A DNA stretch of 64,000 nucleotides, taken from assembly GCA_965237995.1 (NCBI GenBank), contig CBDEGO010000006.1, positions 363,208 to 427,207 on the forward strand, given 5' to 3'. Source of the DNA: Candidatus Poriferihabitaceae bacterium (GTDB lineage Bacteria > Pseudomonadota > Gammaproteobacteria > Arenicellales > Poriferihabitantaceae). The notes under the pieces were generated by a model. It was not told the DNA's origin, ran no database searches, and was given only the letters and a program-made list of their open reading frames with translations. Both the position numbers and the translations under genes were made by a program. Positions 3,269 through 57,858 of the stretch are shown one piece after another. How positions within the stretch are numbered: the first letter of the stretch is position 1; every line of letters starts with the position of its first letter.

Positions 3269-5002
3269 CTACATGGTTTCCGGCGCGCTTACGCCTAGTA
3301 GGGTTAAGCCATTTGCAATCACCACGCGCACGGCATCAATTAATGCTAGCCGCGCATTACGCAAGTGTTCTTCCGATGAAATAAACGGGTGTGCATTGTA
3401 GTAAGTATGAAAGGCCGTCGCTAAGTCTCGAACATAATACGCAACTTGGTGCGGCGCGTAATCACGGGCGGCTTTTTCTAACACTTCAGGATAACGTGCC
3501 AATTCCATCATTAAATCGTGCTCATGCGCTTCTTCTAGCAAACTGTAATCGGCCTTAACTCCTGGCTGTAAACCCTTCTCTTGTAACTGCCTAAATACGC
3601 TACATACTCGGGCGTGCGCATATTGAACATAGTAAACAGGGTTATCTGACGATTGTGACTTAGCGAGTTCTAAGTCGAAATCCATATGTTGTTCCGGCTT
3701 ACGCATCGCGTAGAAAAAACGCGCTGCATCTTTGCCTACTTCCTCGCGCAATTCACGCAGGGTGACAAAATCACCTCCACGAGTTGACATCGATACTTTT
3801 TCATCGCCCCGATACAATACTGCAAACTGCACCAATAAAACGTGTAAGCGTTCTGCATCTTGACCCATGGCCTCGAACGCTGCTTTAACACGTGGAACAT
3901 AGCCATGATGATCAGCGCCCCAGATATTTATCAGCTTATCGTACCCGCGCTGGCGTTTATTCAGGTGATAGGCAATATCTGCAGCAAAGTAGGTATGTAC
4001 CCCGTTTGCGCGCAATACGACTCGGTCTTTTTCGTCACCATAGTCAATCGACCTGAACCACCAAGCGCTATCTTTCTCATAGAGCTTATCGTTACTCTTT
4101 AGGATTTCCACCGCTTGATTGATCATACCGTCATCAAGCAGCAATTTTTCTGAAAACCACGTTTCAAAATCAACACCAAACTGACTCAAATCTAGTCGGA
4201 TATTATCAACTAAAGCGTGTAAGCCTGCGTTAAACACAGTGGCATAACCTTGTTCACCCAAACCACTACGAATGCGTTCAATCAACCCATCAATGCTTTC
4301 TTCGGCATCTTCCGGCAAGTCGGCAAATAAAGCCGCTGAGTCTAATATCAGCGCATTTGCATGTTCTCGATGCAGCGTAGCCGCTATGTCCCAAACATAA
4401 TCTCCTTTGTAACCGTTATCAGGCAAACTCACGGTTTCACCGGCTAGATCTAAATACCGCACATAGACACTCGCAGCCAAAATTTGCATTTGCCGACCAG
4501 CATCATTAACGTAGTACTCAGAGTCAACTTGGTAACCACATGCACACAGTAAACGCTTAAGCGCGTCTCCGTAAGCAGCGCCTCGTCCATGGCCTACATG
4601 TAAAGGGCCTGTAGGGTTTGCCGAAACAAACTCTATCATCACTTTTTCGTTTGCACCAATTTGGGAACGTCCGTACTGCGTGCCTTGCTCGCGAATCAAA
4701 TCGATAATGGCTGATTGGGCATTCTTGGCTAGGCTAAAGTTGATAAATCCAGGCCCGGCAATATCGCACTTTTCGATGCCTTCACTTGCGGGCATCGCTT
4801 CAATTAATTTGGCAGCCAAATCTCGCGGATTCATCTTCGCCAATTTAGCCAACACCATTGCGATGTTGCTCGCGAAATCTCCGTGCTGTTTATCGCGTGC
4901 ACGTTCTACCTGAATACGGTCGCGCGCCTCGATGGGCAGGATATTTTCGCTAACGAGATGTTCAACCGCTTTGGCGAGCGACTGTTCGACGAGCTTTTTC
5001 AT
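3269..5002 (-). CDS. argS: arginine--tRNA ligase
   Basis: HGDFASNIAM, IAGPGFINF, EFVSANPTGPLHVGHGRGAA (HIGH), WGADHHGY, MSTRGG, NPVYYVQYAHAR, GVSAPETM. Confidence 0.98.
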   Translation of the reverse strand: MKKLVEQSLAKAVEHLVSENILPIEARDRIQVERARDKQHGDFASNIAMVLAKLAKMNPRDLAAKLIEAMPASEGIEKCDIAGPGFINFSLAKNAQSAIIDLIREQGTQYGRSQIGANEKVMIEFVSANPTGPLHVGHGRGAAYGDALKRLLCACGYQVDSEYYVNDAGRQMQILAASVYVRYLDLAGETVSLPDNGYKGDYVWDIAATLHREHANALILDSAALFADLPEDAEESIDGLIERIRSGLGEQGYATVFNAGLHALVDNIRLDLSQFGVDFETWFSEKLLLDDGMINQAVEILKSNDKLYEKDSAWWFRSIDYGDEKDRVVLRANGVHTYFAADIAYHLNKRQRGYDKLINIWGADHHGYVPRVKAAFEAMGQDAERLHVLLVQFAVLYRGDEKVSMSTRGGDFVTLRELREEVGKDAARFFYAMRKPEQHMDFDLELAKSQSSDNPVYYVQYAHARVCSVFRQLQEKGLQPGVKADYSLLEEAHEHDLMMELARYPEVLEKAARDYAPHQVAYYVRDLATAFHTYYNAHPFISSEEHLRNARLALIDAVRVVIANGLTLLGVSAPETM

Positions 5003-5051
5003 GATTTGTTACGCAGGTAAATCACTTAATCTAGTACCGACCAAATAAGAT

Positions 5052-5075
5052 AAAAAGCCCGCTAATAGGCGGGCT
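5052..5075 (-). terminator. rho-independent terminator after trxA
   Basis: Stem AGCCCGC/GCGGGCT with a 6-nt loop; A-tract at 5052-5056 reads as a U-tract on the minus strand. Confidence 0.7.
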
Positions 5076-5106
5076 GCTAGCTGATGTAGATACGAATAAA
5101 CGAAGA

Positions 5107-5436
5107 TTAGGCGATATTGCTATCGATAAAACTGGCTAAGTCAGACTTAGAAGAGCCACCTACTTTAGTGCCTTCAACATTGCCGTTTTTAAATAACATG
5201 AGTGTTGGAATGCTACGAATTCCATACTGCGGCGGAGTTTGCGCATTATCATCGACGTTAATCTTGGCAATTTTAACCTTGCCTTTGTAATCACCCGCTA
5301 ACTCTTCAAGGATAGGGGCAATCATTTTGCACGGCCCGCACCATTCCGCCCAGTAATCTAATAGTACTGGCACGTCGGAGTTAAGCACTTCCTGTTCAAA
5401 ATTATCATCGGTAATTTCTACAATTTGATCTGACAT
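5107..5436 (-). CDS. trxA: thioredoxin
   Basis: WAEWCGPCKMIAP active site, YGIRSIPTL; divergent from rhlB as in many gammaproteobacteria. Confidence 0.97.
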   Translation of the reverse strand: MSDQIVEITDDNFEQEVLNSDVPVLLDYWAEWCGPCKMIAPILEELAGDYKGKVKIAKINVDDNAQTPPQYGIRSIPTLMLFKNGNVEGTKVGGSSKSDLASFIDSNIA

Positions 5437-5472
5437 AATTTAACTTTTACTAAATCAACTAACGTTGTTGGA

Positions 5473-5500
5473 ATATGGGTATAATGTAGGGTTCATCAAG
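5473..5500 (-). promoter_or_regulatory. putative sigma-32 (RpoH) promoter of trxA
   Basis: Minus strand reads CTTGATG-N13-ACCCATAT, close to the CTTGAAA-N13/14-CCCCATNT consensus. Confidence 0.55.
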
Positions 5501-5597
5501 CATCCGCTTGAGCCTAAATTCCCACTGTGAATTTCCGCCTCTATAGGCGTTGGACACCTTGAGACTGGCCATTTAAATATTGAGCTAATTATACAGC

Positions 5598-7238
5598 ATG
5601 CAGGACAAACATCTAAGCGAACAACGCTTTAAAGATTTACCCTTACATCCTTTACTAAAGGAAGGCGTTTCCAATACGGGATTCGAATTTTGTACACCGA
5701 TTCAAGCGCTTGCGCTACCTATTGCCTTACAAGGCAAGGATGTGGCTGGACAAGCCCAGACGGGTACTGGCAAAACCGCTGCTTTTTTGCTGGCGACATT
5801 TCATCATATCTTAACTCAACAAGAGGCGGCTAGTTCAAAGGACAAGGCCGAAAGCACTGCGGTAGAGAGCAGCGCACAATCTGAAACTAACGCAGGCGAC
5901 GACGGTGAAGCTCTGCAGATAGCGGGTAAAGATGCAAGTGAAACACCCGAAGCAGATGGAGAGATAGAGCCGGAAGAACAGCATGCAGAGCAAAAGGCTG
6001 ACAGCGGTGAAAGTGATAAGGCGACTAAAGCCAAGAGCAACCCTAAGCCAGCAAAAGAAGACAAGGGCGCGATTAAGGCCTTAATTTTGGCTCCGACTCG
6101 GGAATTAGCTATACAGATTCATAAAGACGCAGTGGAGTTGGCAAAGAGTACCGACATTCGGCTTGCGCTTGCTTATGGCGGCACCGGTTACGAGGAACAA
6201 AAACAAACCATCGAAGCCGGCGTTGATGTGCTGATCGGCACGCCTGGCCGTGTTATTGACTATTACAAACAAAAGGTATTCCATCTTAACGCTATTCAAG
6301 TGGCGGTTATGGACGAAGCTGATCGCATGTTTGATTTAGGCTTTATAACTGATATTCGCTACTTACTGCGGCGGATGCCAGAAGGTTCAAAACGCCTTAA
6401 TTTACTTTTTTCTGCTACCTTGTCGTTTCGAGTGGATGAACTTGCCTACGAGCACATGAATGGCCCAGAGAAAGTAAAGGTTGAATCTGAAATGGTGGTG
6501 CAGCGCATCGAAGAGATAGCCTACTATCCCGCGCAAAACGAAAAAATCACCCTACTCATTAACTTATTGAAAGAGGGTGAAGAAGACAAGCGCACCTTAG
6601 TGTTCATCAACACCAAACACGAAGGCAATAAAGTCGCCGCGTGGCTAGAGGCCAATGAACTTCCCTGTGCTATTTTATCGGGCGATGTGCCACAAGTTAA
6701 ACGTGAACGATTGTTGAAGAAGTTCCACGATGGCAAAGTCGATATCTTAGTGGCGACTGATGTTGCAGCTCGCGGCCTACATATTCCCGATGTCAGTCAT
6801 GTGATAAATTATGATCTACCACAAGACGCCGAAGACTATGTACACCGCTCAGGAAGAACCGCTCGAGCAGGCGCTAGTGGCCACGCCATTAGCCTTGCCT
6901 GTGAGAAATATGCTTATTCGATGATGGACATTGAAGAGTATATTGGCCATCGCATCCCCATTGGTCAGATCACCAACGAGTTATTAGTTGAACCAACAAA
7001 CAAACCTGATTTAAGCAAACTAGATTCAGCGGATTCTAAGCGCAGAGGGTCTAGTGGCAGAGATGCGAAAGCACGTTCTTCAAGTACGACTAGAAGCCAA
7101 GTCGATGGTGAACGGCCAGACCGTCCAAACGTTAAGTATGTTAATCCTCTTGAAGCGAAACCCGATAGAGAGTCCAAGTTCGTAGCGCCTCCTAGTAAGT
7201 TTTCCAGCCGATTTGGTGAAGTGCCAGCATTGGGATAA
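5598..7238 (+). CDS. rhlB: ATP-dependent DEAD-box RNA helicase RhlB with a long acidic insertion
   Basis: FCTPIQALALP, GQAQTGTGKT, APTRELA, DEAD, LFSAT, LSGDVPQ.KR, HRSGRTARAG; divergent from trxA. Confidence 0.92.
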   Translation: MQDKHLSEQRFKDLPLHPLLKEGVSNTGFEFCTPIQALALPIALQGKDVAGQAQTGTGKTAAFLLATFHHILTQQEAASSKDKAESTAVESSAQSETNAGDDGEALQIAGKDASETPEADGEIEPEEQHAEQKADSGESDKATKAKSNPKPAKEDKGAIKALILAPTRELAIQIHKDAVELAKSTDIRLALAYGGTGYEEQKQTIEAGVDVLIGTPGRVIDYYKQKVFHLNAIQVAVMDEADRMFDLGFITDIRYLLRRMPEGSKRLNLLFSATLSFRVDELAYEHMNGPEKVKVESEMVVQRIEEIAYYPAQNEKITLLINLLKEGEEDKRTLVFINTKHEGNKVAAWLEANELPCAILSGDVPQVKRERLLKKFHDGKVDILVATDVAARGLHIPDVSHVINYDLPQDAEDYVHRSGRTARAGASGHAISLACEKYAYSMMDIEEYIGHRIPIGQITNELLVEPTNKPDLSKLDSADSKRRGSSGRDAKARSSSTTRSQVDGERPDRPNVKYVNPLEAKPDRESKFVAPPSKFSSRFGEVPALG

Positions 7239-28049: not shown

Positions 28050-29573
28050 ATGTCACACGCAAACGGCTTAAATTTTAGTATTCTTGCCCCTAGGTCACCA
28101 TTTTACCAAGGTCCTTTTGGGCGTATTTTTGGTGATTTACCACCATGGTCACCACCAGGTTTAGATCCAAATAAGGACGACACCAAGATAGAAGCGCACT
28201 TTTTAGATATCGCTAACAACGATATGACCGAAGTCCCAGGTATTTCGCCAACAGAGATTGCCAATGACAATGCGCTAATTGATCAACTAGAAACGCAGTT
28301 TAGTTCTAATATTCCAGCTGGATACACTTACTTTGGTCAGTTTATTGACCACGATATTACGTTCGATCCTGCCTCTTCACTGATGCGGCAAAATGACCCG
28401 AGTGGTTTGTTAAATCATCGTACACCATGCCTAGATTTAGATAACGTGTACGGTAAAGGGCCGCATCAAAGCCCCTACCTATACGATGGCACGGATACTG
28501 CCAAAATGTTAATTGGTCAAGTTGCCGGAACTAACTTACGTGACCTACCACGCAATAGCCAAGGCAGAGCCTTAATTGGAGACATGCGCAACGATGAGAA
28601 CAGCATGGTGTCTCAGTTACAGTTAGCTTTTTTATTGGCACACAATGAATTGGTCGATCGTGCAAGAGCACAAAATATGTCTGACCCTTTTGAGGCTGCT
28701 CGTAAGACACTACGCTGGCTTTATCAGTACATCGTATGGAATGACTTTATTGTAAAAGTAGCAAATGACGAAATTCACAAATGCGCTTTAAGTTTGAAAA
28801 AAGCATGTGGTGGTCGTTCGCGCTGGGAGTTGGGTTTGGCTGATGTTTTTAAGTGGAAACATCAACCTTACATGCCTATTGAATTTGCTGTCGCAGCGTA
28901 TCGCTTTGGGCATTCAATGGTACGTAATAGCTACCAGACTAATTCGCCGCATCGTGGCTTTCAACAATTTGCGCCTATCTTTGACAACAGTGGTACTGCT
29001 AACCCAGACGACCTACGCGGATTCAAAGCAATGACAGCTGCAAACACGATTCAATGGGATTGGTTTTTAGATATGAACACATCTGGCAGCCCATTTCCAC
29101 AACGAGCAAGAAAAATAGATACTAAGTTATGCAATGCCTTGGCGGCACTGCCTATCGCTGGGCCTGGTTCAAGCATGAACATTCTGGCTTTTCGTAACCT
29201 AGTGCGTGGTTGGCGTTTCGAATTACCCTCTGGCACAGACGTTGCAAACCAGCTTTGCGTAAAGCCGACCAATATAGACCCTGCCAAAGATTCTCTTTGG
29301 TATTACATTTTGCAAGAAGCAGAAAATTTGCCAGGTGCCAATAAAGGGCAAATGTTGGGGCGCGTCGGGTCGATTATCGTTTGTGCAACATTTGCGGGCT
29401 TATTGAAAGGTGATCCGCGTTCTTGGATGAATGTAGCCCCCTGTTGGACACCAGATGATGACCCCTTGCTTGAAGCCCAGGACAAAATTGACGGTAATGG
29501 TTGGTCTTTGGCATCAATTATCAGGCTATCAGGTTTACCCGTTGACGCTGGAGATGTTAGTAACCAATCTTAG
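28050..29573 (+). CDS. heme peroxidase of the peroxidase-cyclooxygenase (animal heme peroxidase) superfamily
   Basis: Distal YFGQFIDHDIT, LDLDNVYG, GDMRNDEN, proximal EFAVAAYRFGHSMVR, LWYYILQEA, LGRVGS.IV. Confidence 0.88.
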   Translation: MSHANGLNFSILAPRSPFYQGPFGRIFGDLPPWSPPGLDPNKDDTKIEAHFLDIANNDMTEVPGISPTEIANDNALIDQLETQFSSNIPAGYTYFGQFIDHDITFDPASSLMRQNDPSGLLNHRTPCLDLDNVYGKGPHQSPYLYDGTDTAKMLIGQVAGTNLRDLPRNSQGRALIGDMRNDENSMVSQLQLAFLLAHNELVDRARAQNMSDPFEAARKTLRWLYQYIVWNDFIVKVANDEIHKCALSLKKACGGRSRWELGLADVFKWKHQPYMPIEFAVAAYRFGHSMVRNSYQTNSPHRGFQQFAPIFDNSGTANPDDLRGFKAMTAANTIQWDWFLDMNTSGSPFPQRARKIDTKLCNALAALPIAGPGSSMNILAFRNLVRGWRFELPSGTDVANQLCVKPTNIDPAKDSLWYYILQEAENLPGANKGQMLGRVGSIIVCATFAGLLKGDPRSWMNVAPCWTPDDDPLLEAQDKIDGNGWSLASIIRLSGLPVDAGDVSNQS

Positions 29574-47014: not shown

Positions 47015-47893
47015 CTAACCGTTAGCGGTGCTTTGAAGAATAAACTCAGCGCAAGCTTCAGCCGCCGGCGACAGGGTTCTTCCTTTTGGGGTAACAATAC
47101 CCAAGGTTCTGATCAGGTTTAAATTGTCTATTTCCTTAAATACCACATCATCTCGATCAGCCGGAACGGCTCGTTCTGGCAACGTGGTAACACCGACTTT
47201 GGCAGCGACTAACGCCAATATTGAAGTGGTGTTTTGCACGGTGATCTCTGCTTTAGCGAGAATTTTTTCGAACTCCTTTGCCTTAATTAAGTGGCAGGTT
47301 CCGTTGGCTATTAGCACTTCTTTTTCTAAATCGGACCAACTGATGGGCGAGGATGATTTAGCTAAGTGGTGTTCGGTACTGCACACTAAGCCAATTGAGT
47401 CTGTCACTAACGGTCTGAATATTTCATCTTCCCTTTCTTCGCCCTCACTCGCGATACCAAAGTCTATCTCTCCTCTAAGCAACATTTCATGTATCTGGAA
47501 CGAGCTATTATCACTAATACTCAGCGTAATTTTAGGGTGCTTTTCAATGAAGCTTGCCAGTAAATTCGGTAAATATTGTGCCGCATAAGAAGGTACTGCA
47601 GCAATATCAACACGTCCAATATCGTTATTGGCGTAGGCAGTGATGCCGGCCATTGCATTGTCAAACCGGATGAGCTGTTCTTTAGCTACCTCATACACAT
47701 ACTGACCAAATGGCGTTAGCTTGGACTTACCTTCTCGCTCAAATAATGCCAACCCTATTTGATCTTCCAGATTACTTACCGTCATAGACACGGCGGATGC
47801 GGAACGGTGTAACCTTTTGGCGGCACCGGTCACACTCCCTACATCTGCAACGGCAACAAAGCTGCGTAAATAAGTTAATTTCAGTGTTCGCAT
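47015..47893 (-). CDS. LysR-family transcriptional regulator
   Basis: HTH LRSFVAVA..GS...AA..LHRS.SAVS; divergent from the BCCT gene; start moved to the ATG at 47893. Confidence 0.92.
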   Translation of the reverse strand: MRTLKLTYLRSFVAVADVGSVTGAAKRLHRSASAVSMTVSNLEDQIGLALFEREGKSKLTPFGQYVYEVAKEQLIRFDNAMAGITAYANNDIGRVDIAAVPSYAAQYLPNLLASFIEKHPKITLSISDNSSFQIHEMLLRGEIDFGIASEGEEREDEIFRPLVTDSIGLVCSTEHHLAKSSSPISWSDLEKEVLIANGTCHLIKAKEFEKILAKAEITVQNTTSILALVAAKVGVTTLPERAVPADRDDVVFKEIDNLNLIRTLGIVTPKGRTLSPAAEACAEFILQSTANG

Positions 47894-47894
47894 A

Positions 47895-47927
47895 GGTATA
47901 TTATTCAGATAATCTGAATAATATACC
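47895..47927. promoter_or_regulatory. perfect 33-bp palindrome, probable LysR operator
   Basis: GGTATATTATTCAGAT-A-ATCTGAATAATATACC, one base from the LysR start codon. Confidence 0.7.
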
Positions 47928-48245
47928 ATATAATTCTAATTGCCTTAATAGTATTTTCGGTTAACAATGATGACTCATACAAATTACAACGTGATAAATA
48001 GGTAAAAATTTGTCATAAATGGCACTTATTACTAAAGCAGAGTAATGGTATGATTTATAAATCTATTCATCTGAGATTAATCTTTCTCAAGACATATAGA
48101 AATAATAAACTTAAGTTTGGAGGAGAGGAAGCACAGTAATCGCATCGCATAATCAGTACAGCTGATTGTGAAACTCGTGATCATTGGCCCCACTACATTA
48201 ATTTAGGTTTCCGTTTATTAGCTAAACTAACTTAGGAAATAACTT

Positions 48246-49973
48246 ATGGCAATTCCAAAGCCCTTATCCGATCTCAATATCGAGATGGAAAATTCCGGAT
48301 TTTATGACGGATTTAATAAAACAGTAGCGATGCTATCTAAAGTGTTGATCGCGTTGGTCGTAATTTGGTGTCTGATTGACCCCAAAGGCGCCGGAGACGC
48401 GTTGAGCGCCGCTAAAAGTTGGTCATTTAATCATCTTAATGCCTACTACATCCTTGCTGTCGCCTTATTTATCGTTACTTGTATCATCATCGCCATCGTG
48501 CCCAGTTTTGGACGAGTTAAATTAGGTACGGGAGATGACAAGCCCGAGTTCTCGACCTTTTCTTGGTTCTCTATGATGTTCGGCGCAGGTATTGGTATCG
48601 GCATGTTGGGCTATGCAGCAGGCGAGCCACTGTATCACTTTGCTAACAACCCTGAGATTATCAAAAGTAAAGAAGCGATTATGGCGGCCTTTGCCGCTAG
48701 CGGATATGCGTTGGCTGAAGGGGCAGACTTATTTGCCAGCTATCACGAACAAGTAGGGGCGGGTTCTATCGCAGCAATAGATGGAATTATTACTCCTAAG
48801 ACACAATCAGCGCTTGAATCAGCCTACCGCTACACATTTCTCCACTGGGGTGTTGGTGCATGGGCAAGTTATGCCTTGATCGGTATCACGATTTCGTTCT
48901 TTGCCTATAATCGCGGATTACCACTTACTGTACGATCTGGCCTAGCGTCTTTGTTTGGTCGTTCATTAGAAGGTAACTTAGGTCACATCATTGATATTTC
49001 AGCCATCATTGCCACTATCTTAGGTATTGCGCAAACTATCGGCTTAGGTCTAAGTGCTTTTGCTTCTGGTCTACATGCAATCACTGGCATGGAATGGTTA
49101 ATGACCGATGGACGCGGCTCTGAACCTACAACAGGCGCATTAATGGTGGCATTGTTTGTCGTTATGCTCGCGTCTACTGCATCTGCATTGTCAGGTGTTG
49201 GTAAAGGCATCAAGTGGCTAAGTAATATCAATATGGTCTTGTCTTATAGCTTGTTAGCGTTCTTCTTAATCTTTGGTGCAACTGGATTAATGTTTGAGCT
49301 ACTAGGTAAAGGTATCATTAGCTACGTGATTCATTTACCTGCTTTGACTTTTACAATTTGGGATCCAAGCACTGAACTAGGTGGGTGGCAAACAGGTTGG
49401 TCGGTGTTCTACTGGGCGTGGTGGATTGCTTTCGCTCCTTTCGTAGGCATCTTCTTGGCACGTATTTCTAAAAATAGAACTATCCGAGAGTTTGTAATAG
49501 GCGCTATCGTACTTCCTTCATTCATGTGCTTTGTATGGTTCACTTTCGTTGGAGGAACCGCGATTGATCTAGAGCTAAATGGCGACGCTAATGGCGCTAT
49601 TATGGGTTCAAACCTTACATACCAAATCTTTGAAATAGTAAATATCATGCTAAGTGGTGGAATAGCTTCATTCATGTCTATCATGGTGGTGGTGCTACTG
49701 CTAACTTACTTGGTCACCTCAGGCGACTCGGCGATTCTCGTTGTTAACACAATCAATGCGGGTGGTAGCCAAGCGGCTACTGGGGCCAAGCATATTATTG
49801 TTTGGGCTCTAGTGCTCACAGCGATAGTCGCCTCGCTCATCGTCGCCGGTGGGTTAGGTGCGATACAGTCTGCTATGATTATCGCTGCGATTCCGTTTAC
49901 TCTTATCATGATATTGATGTGCTTCTCATTGCTAAAAGCTCTTTATCGAGATAGTAAGCGGGCGCAACAATAG
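48246..49973 (+). CDS. BCCT-family (betaine/choline/carnitine/DMSP) transporter
   Basis: PEFSTFSWFSMMFGAGIGIG, FLHWG..AWASY, GVGKGIKWLSNIN, WSVFYWAWWIAFAPFVGIFLARISK.RT.REF. Confidence 0.95.
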   Translation: MAIPKPLSDLNIEMENSGFYDGFNKTVAMLSKVLIALVVIWCLIDPKGAGDALSAAKSWSFNHLNAYYILAVALFIVTCIIIAIVPSFGRVKLGTGDDKPEFSTFSWFSMMFGAGIGIGMLGYAAGEPLYHFANNPEIIKSKEAIMAAFAASGYALAEGADLFASYHEQVGAGSIAAIDGIITPKTQSALESAYRYTFLHWGVGAWASYALIGITISFFAYNRGLPLTVRSGLASLFGRSLEGNLGHIIDISAIIATILGIAQTIGLGLSAFASGLHAITGMEWLMTDGRGSEPTTGALMVALFVVMLASTASALSGVGKGIKWLSNINMVLSYSLLAFFLIFGATGLMFELLGKGIISYVIHLPALTFTIWDPSTELGGWQTGWSVFYWAWWIAFAPFVGIFLARISKNRTIREFVIGAIVLPSFMCFVWFTFVGGTAIDLELNGDANGAIMGSNLTYQIFEIVNIMLSGGIASFMSIMVVVLLLTYLVTSGDSAILVVNTINAGGSQAATGAKHIIVWALVLTAIVASLIVAGGLGAIQSAMIIAAIPFTLIMILMCFSLLKALYRDSKRAQQ

Positions 49974-50223: not shown

Positions 50224-50967
50224 TTGAAAAACTTAACTCCAGTTGTAAAAGTGAGTGCTACGAAACAAATAGCGGAACAAATTCGCCAAGCCATCCTAGA
50301 TGGTACGCTCAAAAAAGACGAACAACTGCCTACAGAGCACGATCTATCTGCCCATTTTGGTGTTTCTCGTCCCACTATCCGAGAAGCGTTAAAACGACTA
50401 GCGGCTCAAAATATGATTCGGTCACGTCGTGGTCCGAGTGGCGGTACTTTTGTCAATAACTATCAAGTTGAGGATGCAGCAGAGGCCATTACCTCATCAA
50501 CCATGCTGATGCTCAGTTTAGGCTCACTGAAAATAAGCGAAGTAATCGACACTCGCCGCTTTATGGAGTTTCATTGCTGTCAAGAAGCCATGAAACATTG
50601 GACTCCTGCAGTCGCTGAGAAAATCGATGCGGCATTCACCGCAATCCAAAGCAAGACGTTAACGGACGAGCAATTCTGTGACGCTGATGTGCATTTTCAC
50701 CGCTCTATTATCGAAGCAGCAGAAAACCCCATGCTTAAGTTTTTAATGTATGGCGTTATAGAAGCACTGGTTCCAGTGATGAATATGATGATTGTATATG
50801 TACGAGACCGCAGCGTGATATTGGGTTACTACCAAGAACTTCGAGATGGCTTATTTAACCAGTCACAAGATGAAGTTCGCTCGGCGCTTGATAAGTTAAT
50901 GGCTTACCTAGCAGAAAAATCTCGTGAAGCACGACAAATACACGAAGCCAAGCAAGCAAGTGCTTAA
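50224..50967 (+). CDS. GntR/FadR-family regulator (DmdR-like)
   Basis: LPTE..LS..FGVSRPTIREALKRLAAQNMIRSRRGPSGG.FV and FCD domain LTDEQFC..DV.FHR.I...A.NP.L; TTG start. The DmdR resemblance is from memory. Confidence 0.88.
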   Translation: MKNLTPVVKVSATKQIAEQIRQAILDGTLKKDEQLPTEHDLSAHFGVSRPTIREALKRLAAQNMIRSRRGPSGGTFVNNYQVEDAAEAITSSTMLMLSLGSLKISEVIDTRRFMEFHCCQEAMKHWTPAVAEKIDAAFTAIQSKTLTDEQFCDADVHFHRSIIEAAENPMLKFLMYGVIEALVPVMNMMIVYVRDRSVILGYYQELRDGLFNQSQDEVRSALDKLMAYLAEKSREARQIHEAKQASA

Positions 50968-51021: not shown

Positions 51022-52038
51022 CTAATAGCCTAAAGACGGGCGAATCGGGTTAAGCAGCGGCTTATTCTGCATAAACAACTCCATGTTTTGAAAGAATAGA
51101 TTCAAAGTCATGGGTACATAGGCATCGCCATCGTCCGCGGAAATATGCGGCGTGACTATTAAGTTTTTGGTATGCCATAAGCGCGAATCGGCTTCGATAG
51201 GTTCTGGGTCAAATACGTCGAGGATGGCTCCAGCTAAACTGCCTTCGTCTAATTTGTCACACAACGCTTCGTAGTCCATGACGGCTTCACGGCCAATATT
51301 GATAATGCCTGCGCTGGGTTTAAGCAAATCTAAACGGCGTTTATCTAACAAGCCGCGTGTTTCGGGCGTATCCGGTGTTGCCACAAAAACATAGTCGGCT
51401 TTTGGTAGCACAGTGTCTAACTGTTCAGTCGTAACCACCTCATTGCAGCCATCTACTGCTTGCCCGCTGCGATTGACCCCAATGACGTGTACGCCTAATG
51501 CTTGCACTTGTTTCGCTGCGGACCCACCTAAACTACCTGTTCCCAAAACGACCAAAGTTTTGCCGGCGATCGGTGAGGCGTAGAGAGAATCGTAAACCCT
51601 GTTTTTTTGGTTTGTTACCACGGCGGGTATATGAGAGTGCAACATCAATACACTCATTAAACCAAACTCCCCCGCTTTGGCGGCGTGTACGCCTTTGTTG
51701 TTGGTGAGCACCACTCCTTCAGGAATCCAATCCATCGGTAGCATGTGTTCGACACCCGCGCCTATGCAATGAATCCACTTTAGGTTTGGTGCAATCTTAG
51801 CCAAGTTTTGCATCGGGAGATTCCACGTTAGTAGCACCTCGGCATTGGCCATTGATTGCTCCCAATGATCGGTATCCCAATCTACGAAGGTATTTAGGTT
51901 GCCTTGTACCGATGGAAAATTGGCTAATTCATCATCAAAACGCTGTTGCGTAATGGTGAACACTTCTTCGCCTTCGGGTGTATTAGGGAAAGAACCTTCC
52001 GCCCAACGGTTATTCTTTATATGTACGTTGATTGTCAT
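51022..52038 (-). CDS. D-2-hydroxyacid dehydrogenase family protein
   Basis: WIHCIGAGVE, LTNNKGVH, Rossmann VLGTGSLG, P.TPETRGLL, INIGR, LDVFDPEP, VTPHIS. Confidence 0.92.
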   Translation of the reverse strand: MTINVHIKNNRWAEGSFPNTPEGEEVFTITQQRFDDELANFPSVQGNLNTFVDWDTDHWEQSMANAEVLLTWNLPMQNLAKIAPNLKWIHCIGAGVEHMLPMDWIPEGVVLTNNKGVHAAKAGEFGLMSVLMLHSHIPAVVTNQKNRVYDSLYASPIAGKTLVVLGTGSLGGSAAKQVQALGVHVIGVNRSGQAVDGCNEVVTTEQLDTVLPKADYVFVATPDTPETRGLLDKRRLDLLKPSAGIINIGREAVMDYEALCDKLDEGSLAGAILDVFDPEPIEADSRLWHTKNLIVTPHISADDGDAYVPMTLNLFFQNMELFMQNKPLLNPIRPSLGY

Positions 52039-52061
52039 TACTTTTTCAATATTTGAATCGA

Positions 52062-53408
52062 CTATTTAGCTTGAGATAACGCGGACATTTGCGCAATGAT
52101 AGCCTTATCTCGCTCTTCACCTTTCAGTGCATCACCAGCAAATATTACCTCCATAACAGCGTCATTGGTTTGTTTTAAAGTGGCACTTTCATTGCCAGTG
52201 TTGGGGATAGCTAACACGGTATCGCTGCCGTGGGTTGGAATGACGCCTTCTGATAACTCAGTGGGTTGAGGTGGGCGCTTACCTTTTTGTAATTTACGGA
52301 TGAATTTACGCATTTGGTTACGGTAAATAGCCACACCCTGATCGCCCGCTACCAAATATTCTTTATCATGATCAGAAATTGTGCCCATACCTTCAACTGC
52401 TTCTACATCACCCGGACTGGCTTGTTTTTGCTCGTAGGTTCGATCGATTAATTCGCCTTGCTCAATTAATTGCATTCCCTCGTCAGTATTGTATTCGTGC
52501 GGATCACCTCGTTCGCCGAAGTTACCCCAAGCAAACGCGATACAATTTTCGTCGTCAACAGGCACGACCCAACGAGTGAAGGCACTGCGCCCGAAAAAAC
52601 ACTGTTTGGTGCCGTCAGTGGCAAAAGCCGCGCCGGACTGAGTAAAGTTTGGCAATATCAATTCGTTCACACGTACCCAAATATTTTCGCCCACTCGTCT
52701 TGATGCAGTACCCAATATGCGTTGAGTTTGCCGTTGGTAAAACTTAATTTCACCCATCATCCCAAAACCATCCGAGAACTGAGATTGATGCAAAAACGCG
52801 GTGTGGACCGGGTCTACAATCGCGTCTAATACTTGAATCCAATTGCAAGCAAACGGTGCAGCATAGGGTGTCATGGTTATCCCTGGTGTATCAAATGCGT
52901 CGTATAGCGGGAATGTTGGCAATTCCTCCTGAGGGCCTAAATACGCGAACAATAAGCCCTTAAATTCTTTAACTGGGTAGGCGCCTAGACGCACTTCATT
53001 TTTTACGTTGATGGCGGAGATTGAGTCTTCAGGTTCTCCGGGGATTTCAAGCACGGTGCCATCTACATCAAATAACCAACCGTGATAGCAACAACGAATA
53101 CCCCTATCTTCACAGCGGCCATATTCTAATGAAGCGCGGCGATGTGGGCAGCGCTTATGCACCAGGCCATATTGCCCCATCTTATCTCGAAACAGCACCA
53201 ATTCCTCACCCAATATTTTGATGAGTTTCGGGCGCTGCTCAAGGTCTTTTGTCATGCCTACCGGATGCCAATAACGTCGAAGGTAATCACCACAGGGCGT
53301 TCCGGGGCCAGTTTGTGTTAGCTCATCAATTGAGCCACCTTGCCAGTTCTGATGGTAGCCACAGAATGCGTCGAAATTATTTTTATCAGGAGTTTGTACT
53401 TCGCTCAT
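52062..53408 (-). CDS. Rieske non-heme iron oxygenase, alpha subunit (phthalate 4,5-dioxygenase/PobA-like)
   Basis: GPGTP.G.YLRRYWHPV, Rieske CPH...CCYH, mononuclear iron NW.Q......DPVHTAFLH, later D (PGDVEA). Confidence 0.92.
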   Translation of the reverse strand: MSEVQTPDKNNFDAFCGYHQNWQGGSIDELTQTGPGTPCGDYLRRYWHPVGMTKDLEQRPKLIKILGEELVLFRDKMGQYGLVHKRCPHRRASLEYGRCEDRGIRCCYHGWLFDVDGTVLEIPGEPEDSISAINVKNEVRLGAYPVKEFKGLLFAYLGPQEELPTFPLYDAFDTPGITMTPYAAPFACNWIQVLDAIVDPVHTAFLHQSQFSDGFGMMGEIKFYQRQTQRILGTASRRVGENIWVRVNELILPNFTQSGAAFATDGTKQCFFGRSAFTRWVVPVDDENCIAFAWGNFGERGDPHEYNTDEGMQLIEQGELIDRTYEQKQASPGDVEAVEGMGTISDHDKEYLVAGDQGVAIYRNQMRKFIRKLQKGKRPPQPTELSEGVIPTHGSDTVLAIPNTGNESATLKQTNDAVMEVIFAGDALKGEERDKAIIAQMSALSQAK

Positions 53409-53431
53409 CTTCTATTTTCAAATTTAAAGGT

Positions 53432-54439
53432 TTAAGCAATTAATTCATTAATCGTATTGTCTAGGTAATCGGCAAACGCAGTGCCATTCCTCGGAGAGGC
53501 CACACAATGCCCCCAAGGTGATTCAAACACGCGTAGTTCTCCATGTGTTAACCACTGTGCTTCCAGTTCGTTGTCAGCAGGCTGAAAATACAAATCATTA
53601 TCACAGGCAATCACGATGGTATTAGCGCTAATCGCTTGCAACGCTTGCTCAAAGTTGCCGTTATAGAGCGCGTTATCACTAATGTCTCCCGCTTGCCAAG
53701 TGGCAAGTTTGGCTAACAAATTATTGGCGTCCCACTCTAAATGCCCTTGTTCCCAATCGGCTAACAGGTCTTCTGCGGCTTCAAAACCAAGGTCTCGATG
53801 GTGCTTTTCTCGATAAAAAGTTTGCGAAAACGCCCAGCCCGCATACACTCGTCCAAATGCCATCAAGCCTTTACGAGGTGGTTGGGTGTAGCATCCATCT
53901 TTAAAGTCGCCGTCTGCTAACAGCGCTGCTTTAACTCCTTCCAGAAACACAATATTGTGTGGCGAGGTTTTGGCTGAAGCGCAAAATGGGATACAGTTTT
54001 TAACTCGGTCAGGAAACTGCGCCGCCCATTGGTAAGCTTGACAGCCTGCCATAGACCAACCGGCAACCAACAGTAGTTGTTCTATGCCCAAGGCTTCGCT
54101 CAATAAACGTTGTTGGCAGGCGACGTTATCCCATAAAGTCACCAAGGGGAATTTGCTTCTGTCAGCGGGGGCCACTGTATTACTCGGTGAAGAAGAATAG
54201 CCATTTCCAAACAAGTTGACCGACACAATAAAGTGTTTGTTAGGGTCTATCGCTCGGTCTTTTCCAAAAAAACCTTCGTTGCGGTCATGCCAACCCGTGT
54301 AGAACGTCGGCAACAACACCGCATTGTCACGCGCGGCGTTAAGCGTGCCATAAGTTTTATAGGCTAACTGCGCATCGGGCAGTACGTTGCCCGATTGCAA
54401 TTCAACATCGCCTAAGCGAAAGGTTAGATAGTCCGCCAT
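53432..54439 (-). CDS. alpha/beta hydrolase of the homoserine-acetyltransferase-like fold
   Basis: LAYKTYGTLN..RDNA, GNGYSSSPSN, GWSMAG nucleophile, DLYF, SPWGH. Confidence 0.85.
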   Translation of the reverse strand: MADYLTFRLGDVELQSGNVLPDAQLAYKTYGTLNAARDNAVLLPTFYTGWHDRNEGFFGKDRAIDPNKHFIVSVNLFGNGYSSSPSNTVAPADRSKFPLVTLWDNVACQQRLLSEALGIEQLLLVAGWSMAGCQAYQWAAQFPDRVKNCIPFCASAKTSPHNIVFLEGVKAALLADGDFKDGCYTQPPRKGLMAFGRVYAGWAFSQTFYREKHHRDLGFEAAEDLLADWEQGHLEWDANNLLAKLATWQAGDISDNALYNGNFEQALQAISANTIVIACDNDLYFQPADNELEAQWLTHGELRVFESPWGHCVASPRNGTAFADYLDNTINELIA

Positions 54440-54454
54440 TGCTATTGAGAAATT

Positions 54455-55879
54455 CTAGTAAAGGCGCAGGTATTCTTGCACTTCCCAATCGGTGACCGTT
54501 TGATGATAGCGCTCCCACTCATCAACTTTATATTGTAAGAACGAGTTAAGTAAAACGGGCCCTAACACGCTTTTAGCTAACTCACTTTGCGACAAATATT
54601 CAGTTGCCTCTAACAAATTGCGAGGTAAGGGGGTTAGTTCGCGCTGTTGTTTCTCTTCATCGTCCATTACGTATAAGTCTTCGTCTAACGACTTACCGGG
54701 GTCGACTTGGTTGACAATGCCATCTACCGACGCAGCCAACATCATGCCCAAGCCTAAATAAAAGTTCATGCACATATCCGCGGCGCGGTTTTCAATCGCA
54801 AACCGACTTTGTGGTAAGCGTAACATGGCGCTTCGGTTGTTACGTCCATAAGCCATATGTGTCGGCGCCCAAGTATAGGTGCCACCTTCAAAGCCGCCTA
54901 CTTTCGGCACCAAGCCGTTGTATGAATTTACGGTACAACAGGCTACAGCAGTGATTGCGCCGCCGTGTTTTAGTATGCCGCCAACCGCGTTGAGTGCCTG
55001 TTTAGTCCAGTCACCTTCTCCATTGTCATAAATATTTTCGCCCGGCTTATCGATTAACTGCATCGATGTATTCATGTGCGCGCCAGAACGCCAATCACCT
55101 GTTGTTGGCTTGGGCATATAAGTGACAAAAATACCGTGCTTTTTTGCGACTTCTTTGAGCAACACCCGCAAGAAAGTCATGCGATCAGCCATAGTCAGTA
55201 GGTCAGCGTAATGAAAATCTAATTCAAACTGAGAATAGGCGCCTTCGGCCACTACATCATGCACGTTCCAACCTAAGTCTTCCAGAATATCAATCAACTC
55301 ACCCAAAAACGCCATTGAATCAAGTGAGTACTCAACATCGTAACCAAAAGCTTGGCGACGCGGGCGCAGCCCTTCGCCTGGCATTGGGTCATCATCAAAC
55401 GCTTTTACTGGTTGGTTGTTTTCATCCCAGCGCATGGTAATAAACTCAGGCTCTACTCCTGCGTACATGGCATAACCTTGTTTAGCCGCTTCATGAATCT
55501 GGCGCTTCATTGCCTGTCGCGGACATAGGTTATAAGGCTTATCTTCCCACCATAAATCAGAAAACACCCAAGCGATGGTTTTGTCCCAAGGGCAAATAAC
55601 AATGGTGTCGATGTCAGGCAGTGGCACTTGGTCAGAATCAGCGGGGCCAAGTTCAGGCACAAATGAAATGGAGTGCACTGCAAACTGCGGGCCTTTACCC
55701 ATGCACAGCAATTCAAAGTCACTGATCGGTACGGGCTTGGTTTTCGGCACACCAAACATATCTATCCAGCAAGATAGAATATATTTCACACCAGCGTCTT
55801 GCAGCTTTTTCTTTTCTTCTTTTAGGCGTTTTGGGTTTGGCAGGGCATCTTTAAAATGTTCGTAATAAGTATTGCTCAT
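54455..55879 (-). CDS. glutamine synthetase-like gamma-glutamyl-amide ligase (GlnT/GmaS/PuuA-type)
   Basis: VEPEF, E....QFE, SGAH, NNRSAMLR, IENR; the flap motif reads TWAP rather than YEAP; start ATG 55879 with an AGGAG SD. Confidence 0.88.
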   Translation of the reverse strand: MSNTYYEHFKDALPNPKRLKEEKKKLQDAGVKYILSCWIDMFGVPKTKPVPISDFELLCMGKGPQFAVHSISFVPELGPADSDQVPLPDIDTIVICPWDKTIAWVFSDLWWEDKPYNLCPRQAMKRQIHEAAKQGYAMYAGVEPEFITMRWDENNQPVKAFDDDPMPGEGLRPRRQAFGYDVEYSLDSMAFLGELIDILEDLGWNVHDVVAEGAYSQFELDFHYADLLTMADRMTFLRVLLKEVAKKHGIFVTYMPKPTTGDWRSGAHMNTSMQLIDKPGENIYDNGEGDWTKQALNAVGGILKHGGAITAVACCTVNSYNGLVPKVGGFEGGTYTWAPTHMAYGRNNRSAMLRLPQSRFAIENRAADMCMNFYLGLGMMLAASVDGIVNQVDPGKSLDEDLYVMDDEEKQQRELTPLPRNLLEATEYLSQSELAKSVLGPVLLNSFLQYKVDEWERYHQTVTDWEVQEYLRLY

Positions 55880-55955
55880 TATTCTCTCCTCTAGTTTTTC
55901 TAAATGGGTTTCTTGAAGCCTCAACGTAAGGTTGCGTAGGGCCTACTATGCGGTT

Positions 55956-56480
55956 TCATACCGATTGACGTTTAAGCAAAAATTGGTTTTTAAACATCTC
56001 AATCGCTGTCATTATTTCAAATTGATCAATATCTTCTTGGTTAAAGCAGTGGTGTTCTAAAAAAGTTTGAAAGGCTTCACCAGACTCACAAACGACTTCA
56101 ATCATTAAGTCAAAGCGGCCTGACACCCACACTACATAAACCACTTCACTAAATTGCGACAGGCGCTCGGCCACCATTTTTGGGCTGGCTACATTGGATA
56201 TTTTAATGCCGATCATGGCGTCAGCTTGGTAGCGAATCGCCATTGGGTCAGCTAGTGCAACAATTTTTAGCACGCCGGCTTCCTTCATCCATTGCACGCG
56301 ATTGCGAATAGTGCCTTCTGATACGTCTAGCGCCTTAGCAATATCCTTAAATGGCATGCGGCCATCATCTTGCAAGAAGCCAATGATTTGCTTGTTTAGG
56401 CCATCATAGGCAGATGACTTGCCAATGGGTTTCTCGGCTACGGATTGCGTGCTAGTAGGCACAGGTTTTAATTCGGCCAA
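55956..56480 (-). CDS. Lrp/AsnC-family regulator
   Basis: LQDDGRMPF..IA..L.VSEGTIRNRV..M...G, V.YV..VSGRFDL; TTG start. Confidence 0.9.
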   Translation of the reverse strand: MAELKPVPTSTQSVAEKPIGKSSAYDGLNKQIIGFLQDDGRMPFKDIAKALDVSEGTIRNRVQWMKEAGVLKIVALADPMAIRYQADAMIGIKISNVASPKMVAERLSQFSEVVYVVWVSGRFDLMIEVVCESGEAFQTFLEHHCFNQEDIDQFEIMTAIEMFKNQFLLKRQSV

Positions 56481-56507
56481 CGGGTTTCTCTATTTATGCA
56501 TATCGCA

Positions 56508-56547
56508 AATTATTTTGACAGTAGTTGCCTTTATTGTCAAAATAATT
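56508..56547. promoter_or_regulatory. inverted repeat with TTGACA on both strands (symmetric divergent promoter/operator)
   Basis: AATTATTTTGACA-N14-TGTCAAAATAATT between the Lrp gene and the desaturase. Confidence 0.6.
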
Positions 56548-56802
56548 ATAAAAAAATACGTATTATGTAATTATTATATGATTTGGTGCGAATTAAGTAT
56601 ATTTTCGACTCTTAATATTAGATTCGCTGCCGCTTCAACTAATGTATAGCTACTGGCCCGCTCAAGTAGGCTTAGCACAAAGGTAGCTTTAGATTAAAGC
56701 CAGCAGATGGCAACGTCACCTAAGTAACTGAAATTAGCTCCTGTCAAATACTAGCTTGTAATGATAAATTGCGCTCATCAACGAATTGGATGAATTTTAA
56801 AC

Positions 56803-57858
56803 ATGCCAACCGAACCCAGTCATACCGCATCGTCAGATGCCCCTACCAATGCCGCGTCTTCCGGCGTAACGATAGATCGCAAACTTTATAAGTCACTGGC
56901 CAAGCGTTCCGATAAACCTGGGCTAATCTGGTTGGCGCAATGGGCGGTGTTGCTGCTAATAACCGGTAGTTTGCTGTCTTGGTCTTTAGGCGCTTGGTGG
57001 GTAGTGCCTGCCATGCTAGCCTATTCCATTGCCTTAATCGTACCCACCTATTCGATTAGTCATGAAACCGCGCACGGCACGGCTTTTCGCACTCGTAAGT
57101 TGAATGAAGTCGTGTTGTTTATCAGCTCAATAATCTATTTCGAAGAAGGCTTGCATCGTCGTTACGCGCACACCTCGCATCACACCCATACTTACCATAT
57201 TGGTAAAGATGCCCAAATTCCCTATGCCTTGCCGATGACCTTTAAAGAATGGCTGTTGGAATTCACCAACGTGGGGTATTACGGTTATTATTTTAAGTTG
57301 TTAATCAATAATGCCTTGGGCCGATTCTCGCCTAAAGTGCTTGAATACACCCCCGAAAGCCAATTAGGCCAGCTGAAGTGGAGGGCACGCGCTTATCTGG
57401 CTATTTATGCATTTTTAATTAGCTTGGTGGTATTCGGCACACTTTGGCCGCTTATCTTTTTGTTTATCCCAAGGTTAATCGGCGGCCCTGCCATGGTGTA
57501 CTTCACTATTTTGCAACACGCAGAGCTGCAAGAGAACTCGCCTTCGATACTGCAATCTACCCGCTCATTTGCCACCACCAACAGATTGGCACAGTTTTTG
57601 TATATGAACATGAATAACCACGTAGAGCATCACCTGTACCCACAGATTCCGTTCTATTCATTGCCCAAACTGAGGGAAGCAATAAAAGACCAGTTGCCGC
57701 AACCCGACCCAGGGCTATGGCGAACTAACCGAGAATTGCTATCAGTTGTAATTCGACGTTCGTTAGGGCGAAATACTCAAGCAACAAGCATTCGCCAAGC
57801 ACCGCATATGATCACAGAGGGTAAATTTACCCCCATCGCTCAAGCGAATATGCGTTAG
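56803..57858 (+). CDS. fatty-acid-desaturase-superfamily di-iron membrane enzyme (MocD-like)
   Basis: RSD.PG, His boxes HETAH, HTSHH and NNHVEHH, QHA.L, P.IPFY.LP.L. Confidence 0.88.
   Translation: MPTEPSHTASSDAPTNAASSGVTIDRKLYKSLAKRSDKPGLIWLAQWAVLLLITGSLLSWSLGAWWVVPAMLAYSIALIVPTYSISHETAHGTAFRTRKLNEVVLFISSIIYFEEGLHRRYAHTSHHTHTYHIGKDAQIPYALPMTFKEWLLEFTNVGYYGYYFKLLINNALGRFSPKVLEYTPESQLGQLKWRARAYLAIYAFLISLVVFGTLWPLIFLFIPRLIGGPAMVYFTILQHAELQENSPSILQSTRSFATTNRLAQFLYMNMNNHVEHHLYPQIPFYSLPKLREAIKDQLPQPDPGLWRTNRELLSVVIRRSLGRNTQATSIRQAPHMITEGKFTPIAQANMR
56919..56997 (+). repeat. 79-bp direct repeat, copy 1 (inside the desaturase CDS)
   Basis: 77/79 identical to 60761-60839. Confidence 0.95.

Follow-up and report, generated by a model that had tools for sequence, protein, structure and literature searches.

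A conserved operon that probably serves ligase-first amine catabolism within marine methylated-amine metabolism

The 64,000-nt stretch of DNA analysed here (the window; GenBank assembly GCA_965237995.1, contig CBDEGO010000006.1, positions 363,208 to 427,207) comes from a Candidatus Poriferihabitaceae bacterium, the host. It carries five genes in a row on the minus strand: an Lrp regulator, a glutamine synthetase (GS)-fold ATP-dependent ligase, called GS* below, a serine hydrolase, a Rieske oxygenase and a dehydrogenase (Table 1). This is a real and conserved operon, proposed to serve ligase-first amine catabolism and probably part of methylated-amine metabolism; its five genes are probably one arrangement of a conserved, widespread and uncharacterised catabolic module of marine bacteria.

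The operon and its enzymes

Pfam and NCBIfam profiles assign the genes of the window to families. The ligase, hydrolase, Rieske and dehydrogenase genes follow one another with gaps of 15, 23 and 23 bp behind the Lrp gene, as the initial annotation had described, and 76 bp separate Lrp from the ligase ATG. The 15-23 bp spacing implies co-transcription of the unit. The ligase probably starts at ATG 55879, since its database relatives are 474 aa long. A palindromic promoter-like site (window 56512-56543, TTGACA-17-CAAAAT on both strands) lies directly upstream of the Lrp start; a promoter scan returned fewer promoter-like sites than shuffled sequences did, and terminator-like sites at chance level. 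The divergent desaturase-fold gene that had been reported is also present. Housekeeping genes make up the remainder of the window, which is not a methylamine island.

Table 1. Genes of the operon and its surroundings, in window coordinates
Feature	Coordinates	Strand	Profile match
Lrp/AsnC-family regulator, first gene of the unit	56480..55956	minus	PF13404 + PF01037
GS*, GS-fold ATP-dependent ligase	55879..54455 (ORF extendable to TTG 55924)	minus	PF00120
Hydrolase, MetX-fold alpha/beta serine type, PRK07581 subfamily	54439..53432	minus	NF005757
Rieske non-haem iron oxygenase, alpha subunit only, phthalate/LigXa-type	53408..52062	minus	PF00355 + PF19301
NAD-dependent dehydrogenase, D-isomer 2-hydroxyacid dehydrogenase family	52038..51022	minus	PF02826, 155.7 bits
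Fatty-acid-desaturase-fold protein ("MocD-like"), divergent	56803..57858	plus	PF00487
BCCT-family transporter, tentative partner only	48246..49973	plus	PF02028
GntR/FCD regulator	50224..50967
LysR gene	47929..47015
AAA_13 ATPase, 799 aa	58096..60495	minus	PF13166

Profile scores place GS* near GmaS, the gamma-glutamylmethylamide-forming ligase of the N-methylglutamate pathway, and outside the curated families. It scores 275.8 bits on PF00120, 358.4 bits on the GmaS/type III glutamate-ammonia ligase equivalog TIGR03105 (cut-off 469.6) and 277.5 bits on true GlnA, TIGR00653 (cut-off 429.15), so that it stays below both curated thresholds. Its top solved relatives are the GmaS structures 9QUR (240.8 bits) and 7CQL (219.2 bits), with true glutamine synthetases ranking lower. 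In ESM Atlas, GS* matched no clusters more specific than "glutamine synthetase" and "type III ligase". At the flap, where an archaeal GS reads GYE...AP, GS* reads GGTYTWAPTH, and 9QUR likewise carries TWAP. The metal and ATP residues (EPEF, the two Glu of AEGAYSQFE, the His of SGAH, RNNRS and ENR) align with both GmaS and GS. The alignment thus confirms two features that the initial annotation had read from the translation alone, the TWAP at the Glu-flap position and the intact metal/ATP residues.

The substrate pockets show changes that the initial annotation had not noted. Residues named for RhGmaS in the available portion of its structural study (PMC7948447) were placed on the GS* alignment, with numbering corrected for the tag of 20 residues on chain 7CQL. 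In that source, the glutamate analogue methionine sulfoximine (MetSox) contacts Glu124, Glu179, Gly231, His235, Arg288 and Arg327; four of the six are kept in GS*, while Arg288 is replaced by Gly (NSYKRL to NSYNGL) and Gly231 by Arg (a GDNGSGMH-type loop to GDWRSGAH). The amine pocket, given there as Tyr147, Gln175, Asp177, Glu179, Glu186, Asn188 and Lys30', retains Tyr147, Glu179, Glu186 and Lys30' (4/7), with Gln175 changed to Asp, Asp177 to Val and Asn188 to Asp; the predicted pocket is therefore still acidic and has in addition a hydrophobic face. The host genome's own GmaS (C2:166135-167442) retains the GmaS versions, including the five of the seven amine-pocket residues that lie in the motif read. 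Both exchanges in the acid pocket are nearly invariant. GDWRSGAH and NSYNGL occur jointly in 118 of 120 database relatives (73-100% identity), with NSYNGL in all 120 and GDWRSGAH unmatched in two. Among full-length copies from the loci, 43 of 45 have both motifs and two read NSYKGL.

Judged from these alignments, GS* is an intact, strongly constrained and distinct family with a GmaS-like catalytic core, an apparently acidic amine pocket and a rebuilt acid pocket. Its proposed identity as a gamma-glutamyl-amide ligase holds in so far as scores and alignment make it GmaS-like and not a true GS; the glutamyl part is less certain, because two glutamate contacts are exchanged. The 3.3-Mb host genome has at least seven GS-fold paralogues, and at C2:499361-504024 another GS-like gene accompanies three GltB-like genes, the group being 28-50% identical to gmaS-mgsABC. 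This number of paralogues and the second GltB-like set suggest several amine-ligase pathways.

The hydrolase scores 430.7 bits on NF005757 (PRK07581, "hypothetical protein"; cut-off 332) and 158.7 bits on the MetX equivalog TIGR01392, below its cut-off of 500. It aligns over nearly its full length with 5D6O (E 1.8e-62) and 5E4Y (E 6.5e-52), and the catalytic triad is kept, with Ser (GWSMAG), Asp (DNDLYF) and His (WGHC) each finding its counterpart in both structures. The PDB names these two homoserine O-acetyltransferase; we take them to be the acetyl esterases CgHle and MekB. The known chemistry of the MetX fold concerns O-esters or O-acyl groups and thioesters, not amides, and for this reason a role of the hydrolase as deglutamylase is an assumption.

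The Rieske protein carries a CPH-x16-CCYH cluster motif and a DPVH-x4-H iron motif in its translation. Its solved relatives are 7FJL (a phthalate dioxygenase), 7FHR and 9INA, with NdmA (6ICP) also matched, all at a moderate level: no structure gives more than 145 bits, the similarity lies mainly in the N-terminal part, and no curated equivalog is reached. The dehydrogenase likewise reaches no NCBIfam equivalog. It shows the motifs GTGSLG, IGREA, DPEP and TPHIS, in which we presume the Arg/Glu/His triad from knowledge of the family, not from a structure; the family spans glyoxylate, hydroxypyruvate and D-lactate reductases.

Conservation of the gene set

A scan for GS* loci, with one genome per species, yielded 57 loci from other genomes at 65-95% identity, and tblastn with the window proteins gave the partner counts. 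The hosts are mostly uncultured marine Gammaproteobacteria (SUP05/Thioglobus, Arenicellales and sponge-associated lineages), with some Alphaproteobacteria. Lrp lies beside GS* in 42 of the 57 loci and the hydrolase in 40, a share that rises to 38 of 44 among loci with at least 1.5 kb of downstream sequence. The LigXa-type Rieske gene accompanies GS* in 17/57 and the dehydrogenase in 16/57, following the Rieske gene in 16 of its 17 occurrences. The gene set therefore recurs beyond the host, and the absence of co-occurrence that would have spoken against a common system is not seen.

Clustering of all open reading frames (ORFs) of the GS* loci revealed further partners. A GbcA-like Rieske oxygenase of 376 aa is present in 33/57 loci (NF058607, 131.5 bits, below cut-off), glyoxalase I in 20/57 (TIGR00068, 150.4 bits against a cut-off of 120) and an EutQ-type cupin in 18/57. 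In the host genome the nearest match to the GbcA-like oxygenase reaches 28% identity and is no orthologue, nothing matches the EutQ cupin, and the one glyoxalase I match, at about 40% identity, lies away from the cluster. A second, GmaS-like GS gene sits between GS* and the hydrolase in 14 loci, most of them of the SUP05/Thioglobus type, and in seven of the 14 an mgsABC-like trio joins it. The second GS gene of one SUP05 locus (L026) scores 651.5 bits on TIGR03105 and is thus a bona fide GmaS.

Genome-wide co-occurrence extends this picture beyond adjacency. Within 91 genomes of the same order, host included, GS* (E <=1e-100) occurs in 28 and a Rieske orthologue (>=54% identity) in 26. The two coincide closely: among genomes with GS*, 23 have the Rieske orthologue and five lack it, while among those without GS* the figures are three and 60. 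The three GS*-negative Rieske carriers are genomes 79-91% complete. In one relative, G487, GS* and the Rieske-dehydrogenase pair are both present, separated by 1.36 Mb. In G480, of the same genus as the host, one contig carries hydrolase, Rieske, dehydrogenase, BCCT, a transposase and LysR, and another carries cupin, GbcA-like Rieske, GloA and GS*. The parts of the module shuffle yet stay in the same genomes, a pattern that speaks against a mosaic formed by chance. Both adjacency (17/57 and 16/57 loci) and genome-wide co-occurrence (23/28 GS* genomes against 3/63 others) support a place for the Rieske and dehydrogenase genes alongside GS*, in agreement with the original proposal that they are part of the system.

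Several observations concern the surroundings of these parts in relatives. The transposase in G480 is of the Mutator family and lies between the BCCT and LysR genes (C4; L073 15337-16143), which fits a rearrangement that parted GS* from the hydrolase-Rieske-dehydrogenase genes. A seemingly shared set of frames beside the Rieske-dehydrogenase pair in G480 and G487 (389, 277-290 and ~945 aa) proved a coincidence, comprising cyanophycin genes in one case and succinyl-CoA ligase plus a helicase in the other. In the closest relative (L053 9779-11880), the genes after the dehydrogenase encode a DUF599 protein and an ammonium transporter of the Amt family, and L007 has similarly sized ORFs at the equivalent position (4385-6751). 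Such an Amt carrier could import methylammonium-type substrates.

The genes that flank the operon fare differently. The desaturase, GntR and LysR genes were each found by tblastn at 0/57 GS* loci. The best desaturase homologues in five relatives lie elsewhere, the one in G480 being a 52% match on a third contig, so the suggestion that a MocD-like enzyme belongs to the system is not borne out; the GntR gene is excluded from the module as well. The best desaturase homologue in G487 (C1:367503-368485) has in-frame stops and lies ~28 kb from that genome's GS*. A link to the BCCT transporter, which the initial annotation had considered, is weak across the loci (1/57, at L031, beside Lrp-GS*-hydrolase), while a 61% homologue does stand beside the hydrolase-Rieske-dehydrogenase genes in G480. 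BCCT lies near the unit in the host, G480 and L031, and the first two represent a single genus. Known substrates of the BCCT family are quaternary compounds.

Two other genes of the window deserve a brief mention. The AAA_13 gene, which adjoins the desaturase gene, has a GC content of 0.37-0.39 against 0.43-0.49 in the rest of the profiled 44-64 kb, and looks horizontally acquired, of a defence or abortive-infection type. The plus-strand gene at window 28050-29573 encodes a protein of 507 aa whose animal-haem-peroxidase domain (PF03098) is uncommon among bacterial proteins.

Methylated-amine context and candidate routes

The host genome, which is 100% complete, has candidate genes for the consumption of trimethylamine N-oxide (TMAO) and methylamine. 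Its Tdm-like gene (787 aa) stands between two sets of OpuAC-type ABC transporter genes; it also has an FMO-type Tmm candidate, and gmaS-mgsABC at a site apart from the operon. PF11927, the alpha subunit of the haem N-demethylase, was used as marker for Dmm, the dimethylamine (DMA) demethylase; one inspected match sits between a DmmA-like_N/Fer2 protein and a GcvT protein. It has no match in the host genome. PF11982 (DUF3483) was rejected as a marker, as it matches frames of ~650 aa while the Dmm subunits are given as 24, 36 and 42 kDa in the accessible text of PMC5520151. Beside the Tmm candidate lies a short DUF1989 protein (C3:72671-73516; ~280-325 aa). Many GS* genomes have frames of comparable size (~288-324 aa), and such a frame lies 3-4 kb from a 57%-identical GS* paralogue in G036 and in G050.

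Fifty GS* genomes, chosen by GS* itself, were compared with a phylum-wide sample of 400 other genomes. GS* is present in 50/50 of the former and 1/400 of the latter. Tdm-like frames of >=650 aa occur in at least 43 of the 50 against 23 of the 400, and a GmaS above cut-off in 45/50. PF11927 is found in only 4/50 GS* genomes, as against 22 of the 23 Tdm genomes of the phylum sample. Within the order, GS* occurs in 25 of 44 genomes with Tdm and in 3 of 47 without it. GS* is nested almost entirely within TMAO-demethylating, methylamine-consuming genomes, mostly without Dmm. This co-occurrence with Tdm and GmaS, together with the SUP05 operons that place mgsABC-gmaS between GS* and the hydrolase, supports the second of the two alternatives first raised, a link to methylamine metabolism.

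The favoured interpretation, which we hold tentatively and rate somewhat short of an even chance, links the module to the TMAO pathway as a ligase-first route by which a small methylated amine is broken down. GS* would spend ATP to couple a small, cationic amine with glutamate or an acid that resembles it, with DMA from the action of Tdm on TMAO as the best single guess. The Rieske oxygenase, served by a reductase encoded elsewhere, would hydroxylate an N-methyl group of the amide. The dehydrogenase and serine hydrolase could then handle an N-hydroxymethyl or N-formyl intermediate, or free the carrier; one sequence we infer would run from N-hydroxymethyl amide to N-formyl amide, followed by deformylation or by cleavage of the carbinolamide. 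Gamma-glutamylmethylamide or methylamine would be left for the GmaS-Mgs (N-methylglutamate) pathway elsewhere in the genome, and Lrp would control the unit.

That the amine is DMA is a doubtful proposition in its own right. Equally doubtful is the stronger claim built on it, namely that the module supplies, by turning gamma-glutamyl-dimethylamide into gamma-glutamylmethylamide, the missing DMA step in bacteria with Tmm, Tdm and GmaS and without DmmDABC, such as SUP05, sponge symbionts and the host. The presence of Tdm and GmaS and the rarity of the Dmm marker in GS* carriers fit a ligase-first DMA route without proving it. Rieske N-demethylation of N,N-dimethyl amide-like groups reportedly has a precedent in PdmAB, which acts on N,N-dimethylureas. 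The predicted amine pocket, with its new hydrophobic face and retained negative charge, also speaks for DMA. Trimethylamine cannot form an amide. RhGmaS turns over with DMA at a Km of 16 mM according to the accessible text of PMC7948447, which indicates that a GS-fold enzyme can accept DMA. Turnover with trimethylamine is also listed in Table 1 of that source, so the RhGmaS assay may read ATP hydrolysis and not ligation, and the DMA value calls for caution.

A number of findings weigh against this interpretation. The rebuilt acid pocket (Arg288 to Gly, Gly231 to Arg) is not predicted by a change of amine alone, and Asp177, proposed in the available portion of PMC7948447 as the residue that deprotonates methylamine in RhGmaS, is Val in GS*. 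The solved relatives of the hydrolase have the MetX fold, with ester-type rather than amidase chemistry. No reductase gene lies in the operon (the genome at large was not searched for one). The partners found at other loci, the GbcA-like Rieske oxygenase, glyoxalase I and EutQ cupin, point to a 2-oxoaldehyde product and not to DMA chemistry, and a transporter from a quaternary-compound family stands near the unit in the host, G480 and L031. The genomic pattern is also less clean than the phylum-wide contrast suggests. PF11927 occurs in just 1 of the 91 order genomes, and the 19 Tdm genomes without GS* have no PF11927 either, so that lineage explains most of the inverse pattern of GS* and Dmm, which is no clean replacement. 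PF11927 is also present in at least five GS* genomes, namely G029, G037, G046 (the closest relative, at 95% identity), G048 and G086, and in G480. Finally, related genomes do not count as independent observations, and GS* itself was the criterion by which the 50 genomes had been selected.

Some of these same findings would be expected if the oxygenase instead cleaved or demethylated a betaine-, choline- or carnitine-like compound imported by BCCT, an explanation we consider unlikely but regard as the closest competitor. The dehydrogenase, and elsewhere glyoxalase I with the hydrolase as a thioesterase, would then handle a 2-oxo or 2-hydroxy carbon product, while GS* would capture the freed amine or activate the acid product; the products would include trimethylamine or a lower methylamine. 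BCCT beside the unit in the host, in G480 (hydrolase-Rieske-dehydrogenase-BCCT-LysR) and in L031 speaks for such a route, as do the GbcA-like partner oxygenase at other loci, with glyoxalase I above cut-off, and the GMC (choline-dehydrogenase-type) oxidoreductase that adjoins the Rieske-dehydrogenase pair in G487. The dehydrogenase family, with its glyoxylate, hydroxypyruvate and D-lactate reductases, suits the carbon product, and methylamine as a product accounts equally well for the association with Tmm, Tdm and GmaS. Yet 56 of the 57 loci have no BCCT, and two of the three supporting cases, the host and G480, share a genus; the host itself lacks both the GbcA-like orthologue and the EutQ-cupin match and has its ~40% glyoxalase I outside the cluster. 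An ATP-dependent ligase has no explained role in this scheme, nor can a substrate be named.

Less probable again is the first alternative of the initial annotation, a protect-oxidise-deprotect pathway like those of Ipu and Puu, here acting on an amino-alcohol or a primary alkylamine (candidates are ethylamine, propylamine, isopropylamine, 1-aminopropan-2-ol and aminoacetone). Glutamylation would be followed by Rieske hydroxylation of the chain, oxidation of the alcohol by the dehydrogenase, and release of an amino acid and glutamate by the hydrolase, so that the ligase, hydrolase, oxygenase and dehydrogenase provide one enzyme for each step. Glyoxalase I of the sister clusters would fit methylglyoxal arising from aminoacetone. 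Nevertheless, the hydrolase is not of the glutamine-amidotransferase type found in the known pathways, the rebuilt acid pocket is not predicted, and the tight nesting of GS* in Tdm/GmaS genomes and its combination with mgsABC-gmaS in SUP05 stay unexplained. In its favour, GmaS-type enzymes accept ethylamine and propylamine in Table 1 of the available text of PMC7948447.

The separate placement of GS* (with cupin, GbcA-like Rieske and GloA) and of hydrolase-Rieske-dehydrogenase-BCCT on different contigs in G480, their 1.36-Mb distance in G487 and six loci with room downstream and no hydrolase could mean that Lrp-GS* and hydrolase-Rieske-dehydrogenase serve separate pathways and are merely adjacent in the host, but this is very improbable given a co-occurrence that is strong irrespective of adjacency (23/28 against 3/63), a hydrolase after GS* in 38 of 44 loci with room, and a spacing of 15-23 bp that implies co-transcription. 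Minor options, with the hydrolase as a glyoxalase-II-like thioesterase or GS* making a gamma-glutamyl thiol or esterifying choline, each explain some partner genes and were set aside.

Methylated amines form a large pool of marine dissolved nitrogen and are aerosol precursors. Literature searches turned up neither a description of this gene set nor any work on gamma-glutamyl-dimethylamide, consistent with the initial statement that no described pathway has these genes; matches for "dimethylglutamine" concern C-methylated residues of sponge peptides. The available text of Lidbury et al. (PMC5520151) reports dmmDABC as absent from SAR11 and abundant marine Gamma- and Deltaproteobacteria and calls this a bottleneck, so that many abundant marine bacteria hold the enzymes before and after DMA without DmmDABC. 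Since GS* is nearly restricted to TMAO-demethylase genomes, the ligase-first module offers a concrete and testable candidate for this gap. If it does supply the missing step, the proposed oceanic "DMA bottleneck" would be smaller than thought; if it does not, GS* marks another unrecognised route feeding the same pathway. Either outcome would give a function to a gene set of some very abundant ocean bacteria, conserved at 65-95% identity in GS* across Gamma- and Alphaproteobacteria, and would describe a GS-fold ligase with an exchanged substrate-binding arginine. New in this analysis are the residue-level mapping of GS* on a published GmaS structure, the finding that the LigXa-type Rieske oxygenase and GS* are coupled across whole genomes, the evidence, counted on both sides, that GS* is nested in Tdm/GmaS genomes, and the exclusion of the desaturase and GntR genes from the module.

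Comparison with known systems

At the level of single enzymes, the Rieske oxygenase and the hydrolase can be set against known proteins. Phthalate-family Rieske demethylases (LigXa, NdmA/B, DdmC) share the combination of a Rieske domain with a LigXa_C-type catalytic domain, as the matches to 7FJL and 6ICP reflect, but similarity to solved structures ends at 145 bits, and no curated equivalog covers the operon protein. The hydrolase shares with 5D6O and 5E4Y the MetX fold, a near full-length alignment and the Ser/Asp/His residues; it differs in its genomic context and in a GXSXG motif that reads GWSMA.

Compared as pathways, DmmDABC, the haem-dependent oxidative N-demethylase, would perform the corresponding conversion if the substrate of GS* is DMA, yielding a C1 unit and a methylamine-level product in the same Tdm/GmaS neighbourhood. 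The two systems differ in other respects: there is no homology, PF11927 is absent from the host and from 46 of the 50 GS* genomes, and the proposed route would consume ATP, have an amide as its intermediate and rely on a Rieske oxygenase.

The systems for putrescine (Puu), isopropylamine (Ipu) and aniline or 1-naphthylamine also encode a GS-like ligase with an oxidising enzyme and a hydrolase. Their hydrolases are of the class I glutamine-amidotransferase type, whereas that of the operon has the MetX fold. The operon's Rieske protein, of the phthalate/LigXa type, consists of one alpha subunit, and neither a beta subunit nor a reductase is encoded alongside; the glutamate pocket of GS* is rebuilt, and its carriers are marine methylated-amine bacteria rather than aromatic-amine degraders. 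The aniline and naphthylamine systems (AtdA1/TdnQ, NpaA1) likewise pair the ligase with a Rieske dioxygenase, as described in the accessible part of PMC11335346.

GS* itself is closest to GmaS, of the N-methylglutamate pathway (gmaS-mgsABC-mgdABCD). GS* shares with GmaS the GS fold, TWAP, four of seven amine-pocket residues and all metal/ATP residues, lies in one operon with mgsABC-gmaS in SUP05, and co-occurs with GmaS in 45 of 50 genomes. It is nevertheless only ~30% identical to the host's GmaS, falls below TIGR03105, and has Arg288 and Gly231 exchanged and Val in place of Asp177. Moreover, GS* is nearly always an additional gene, with a true GmaS in the same genome, and it is coupled to a hydrolase and to Rieske oxygenases that the N-methylglutamate pathway does not contain.

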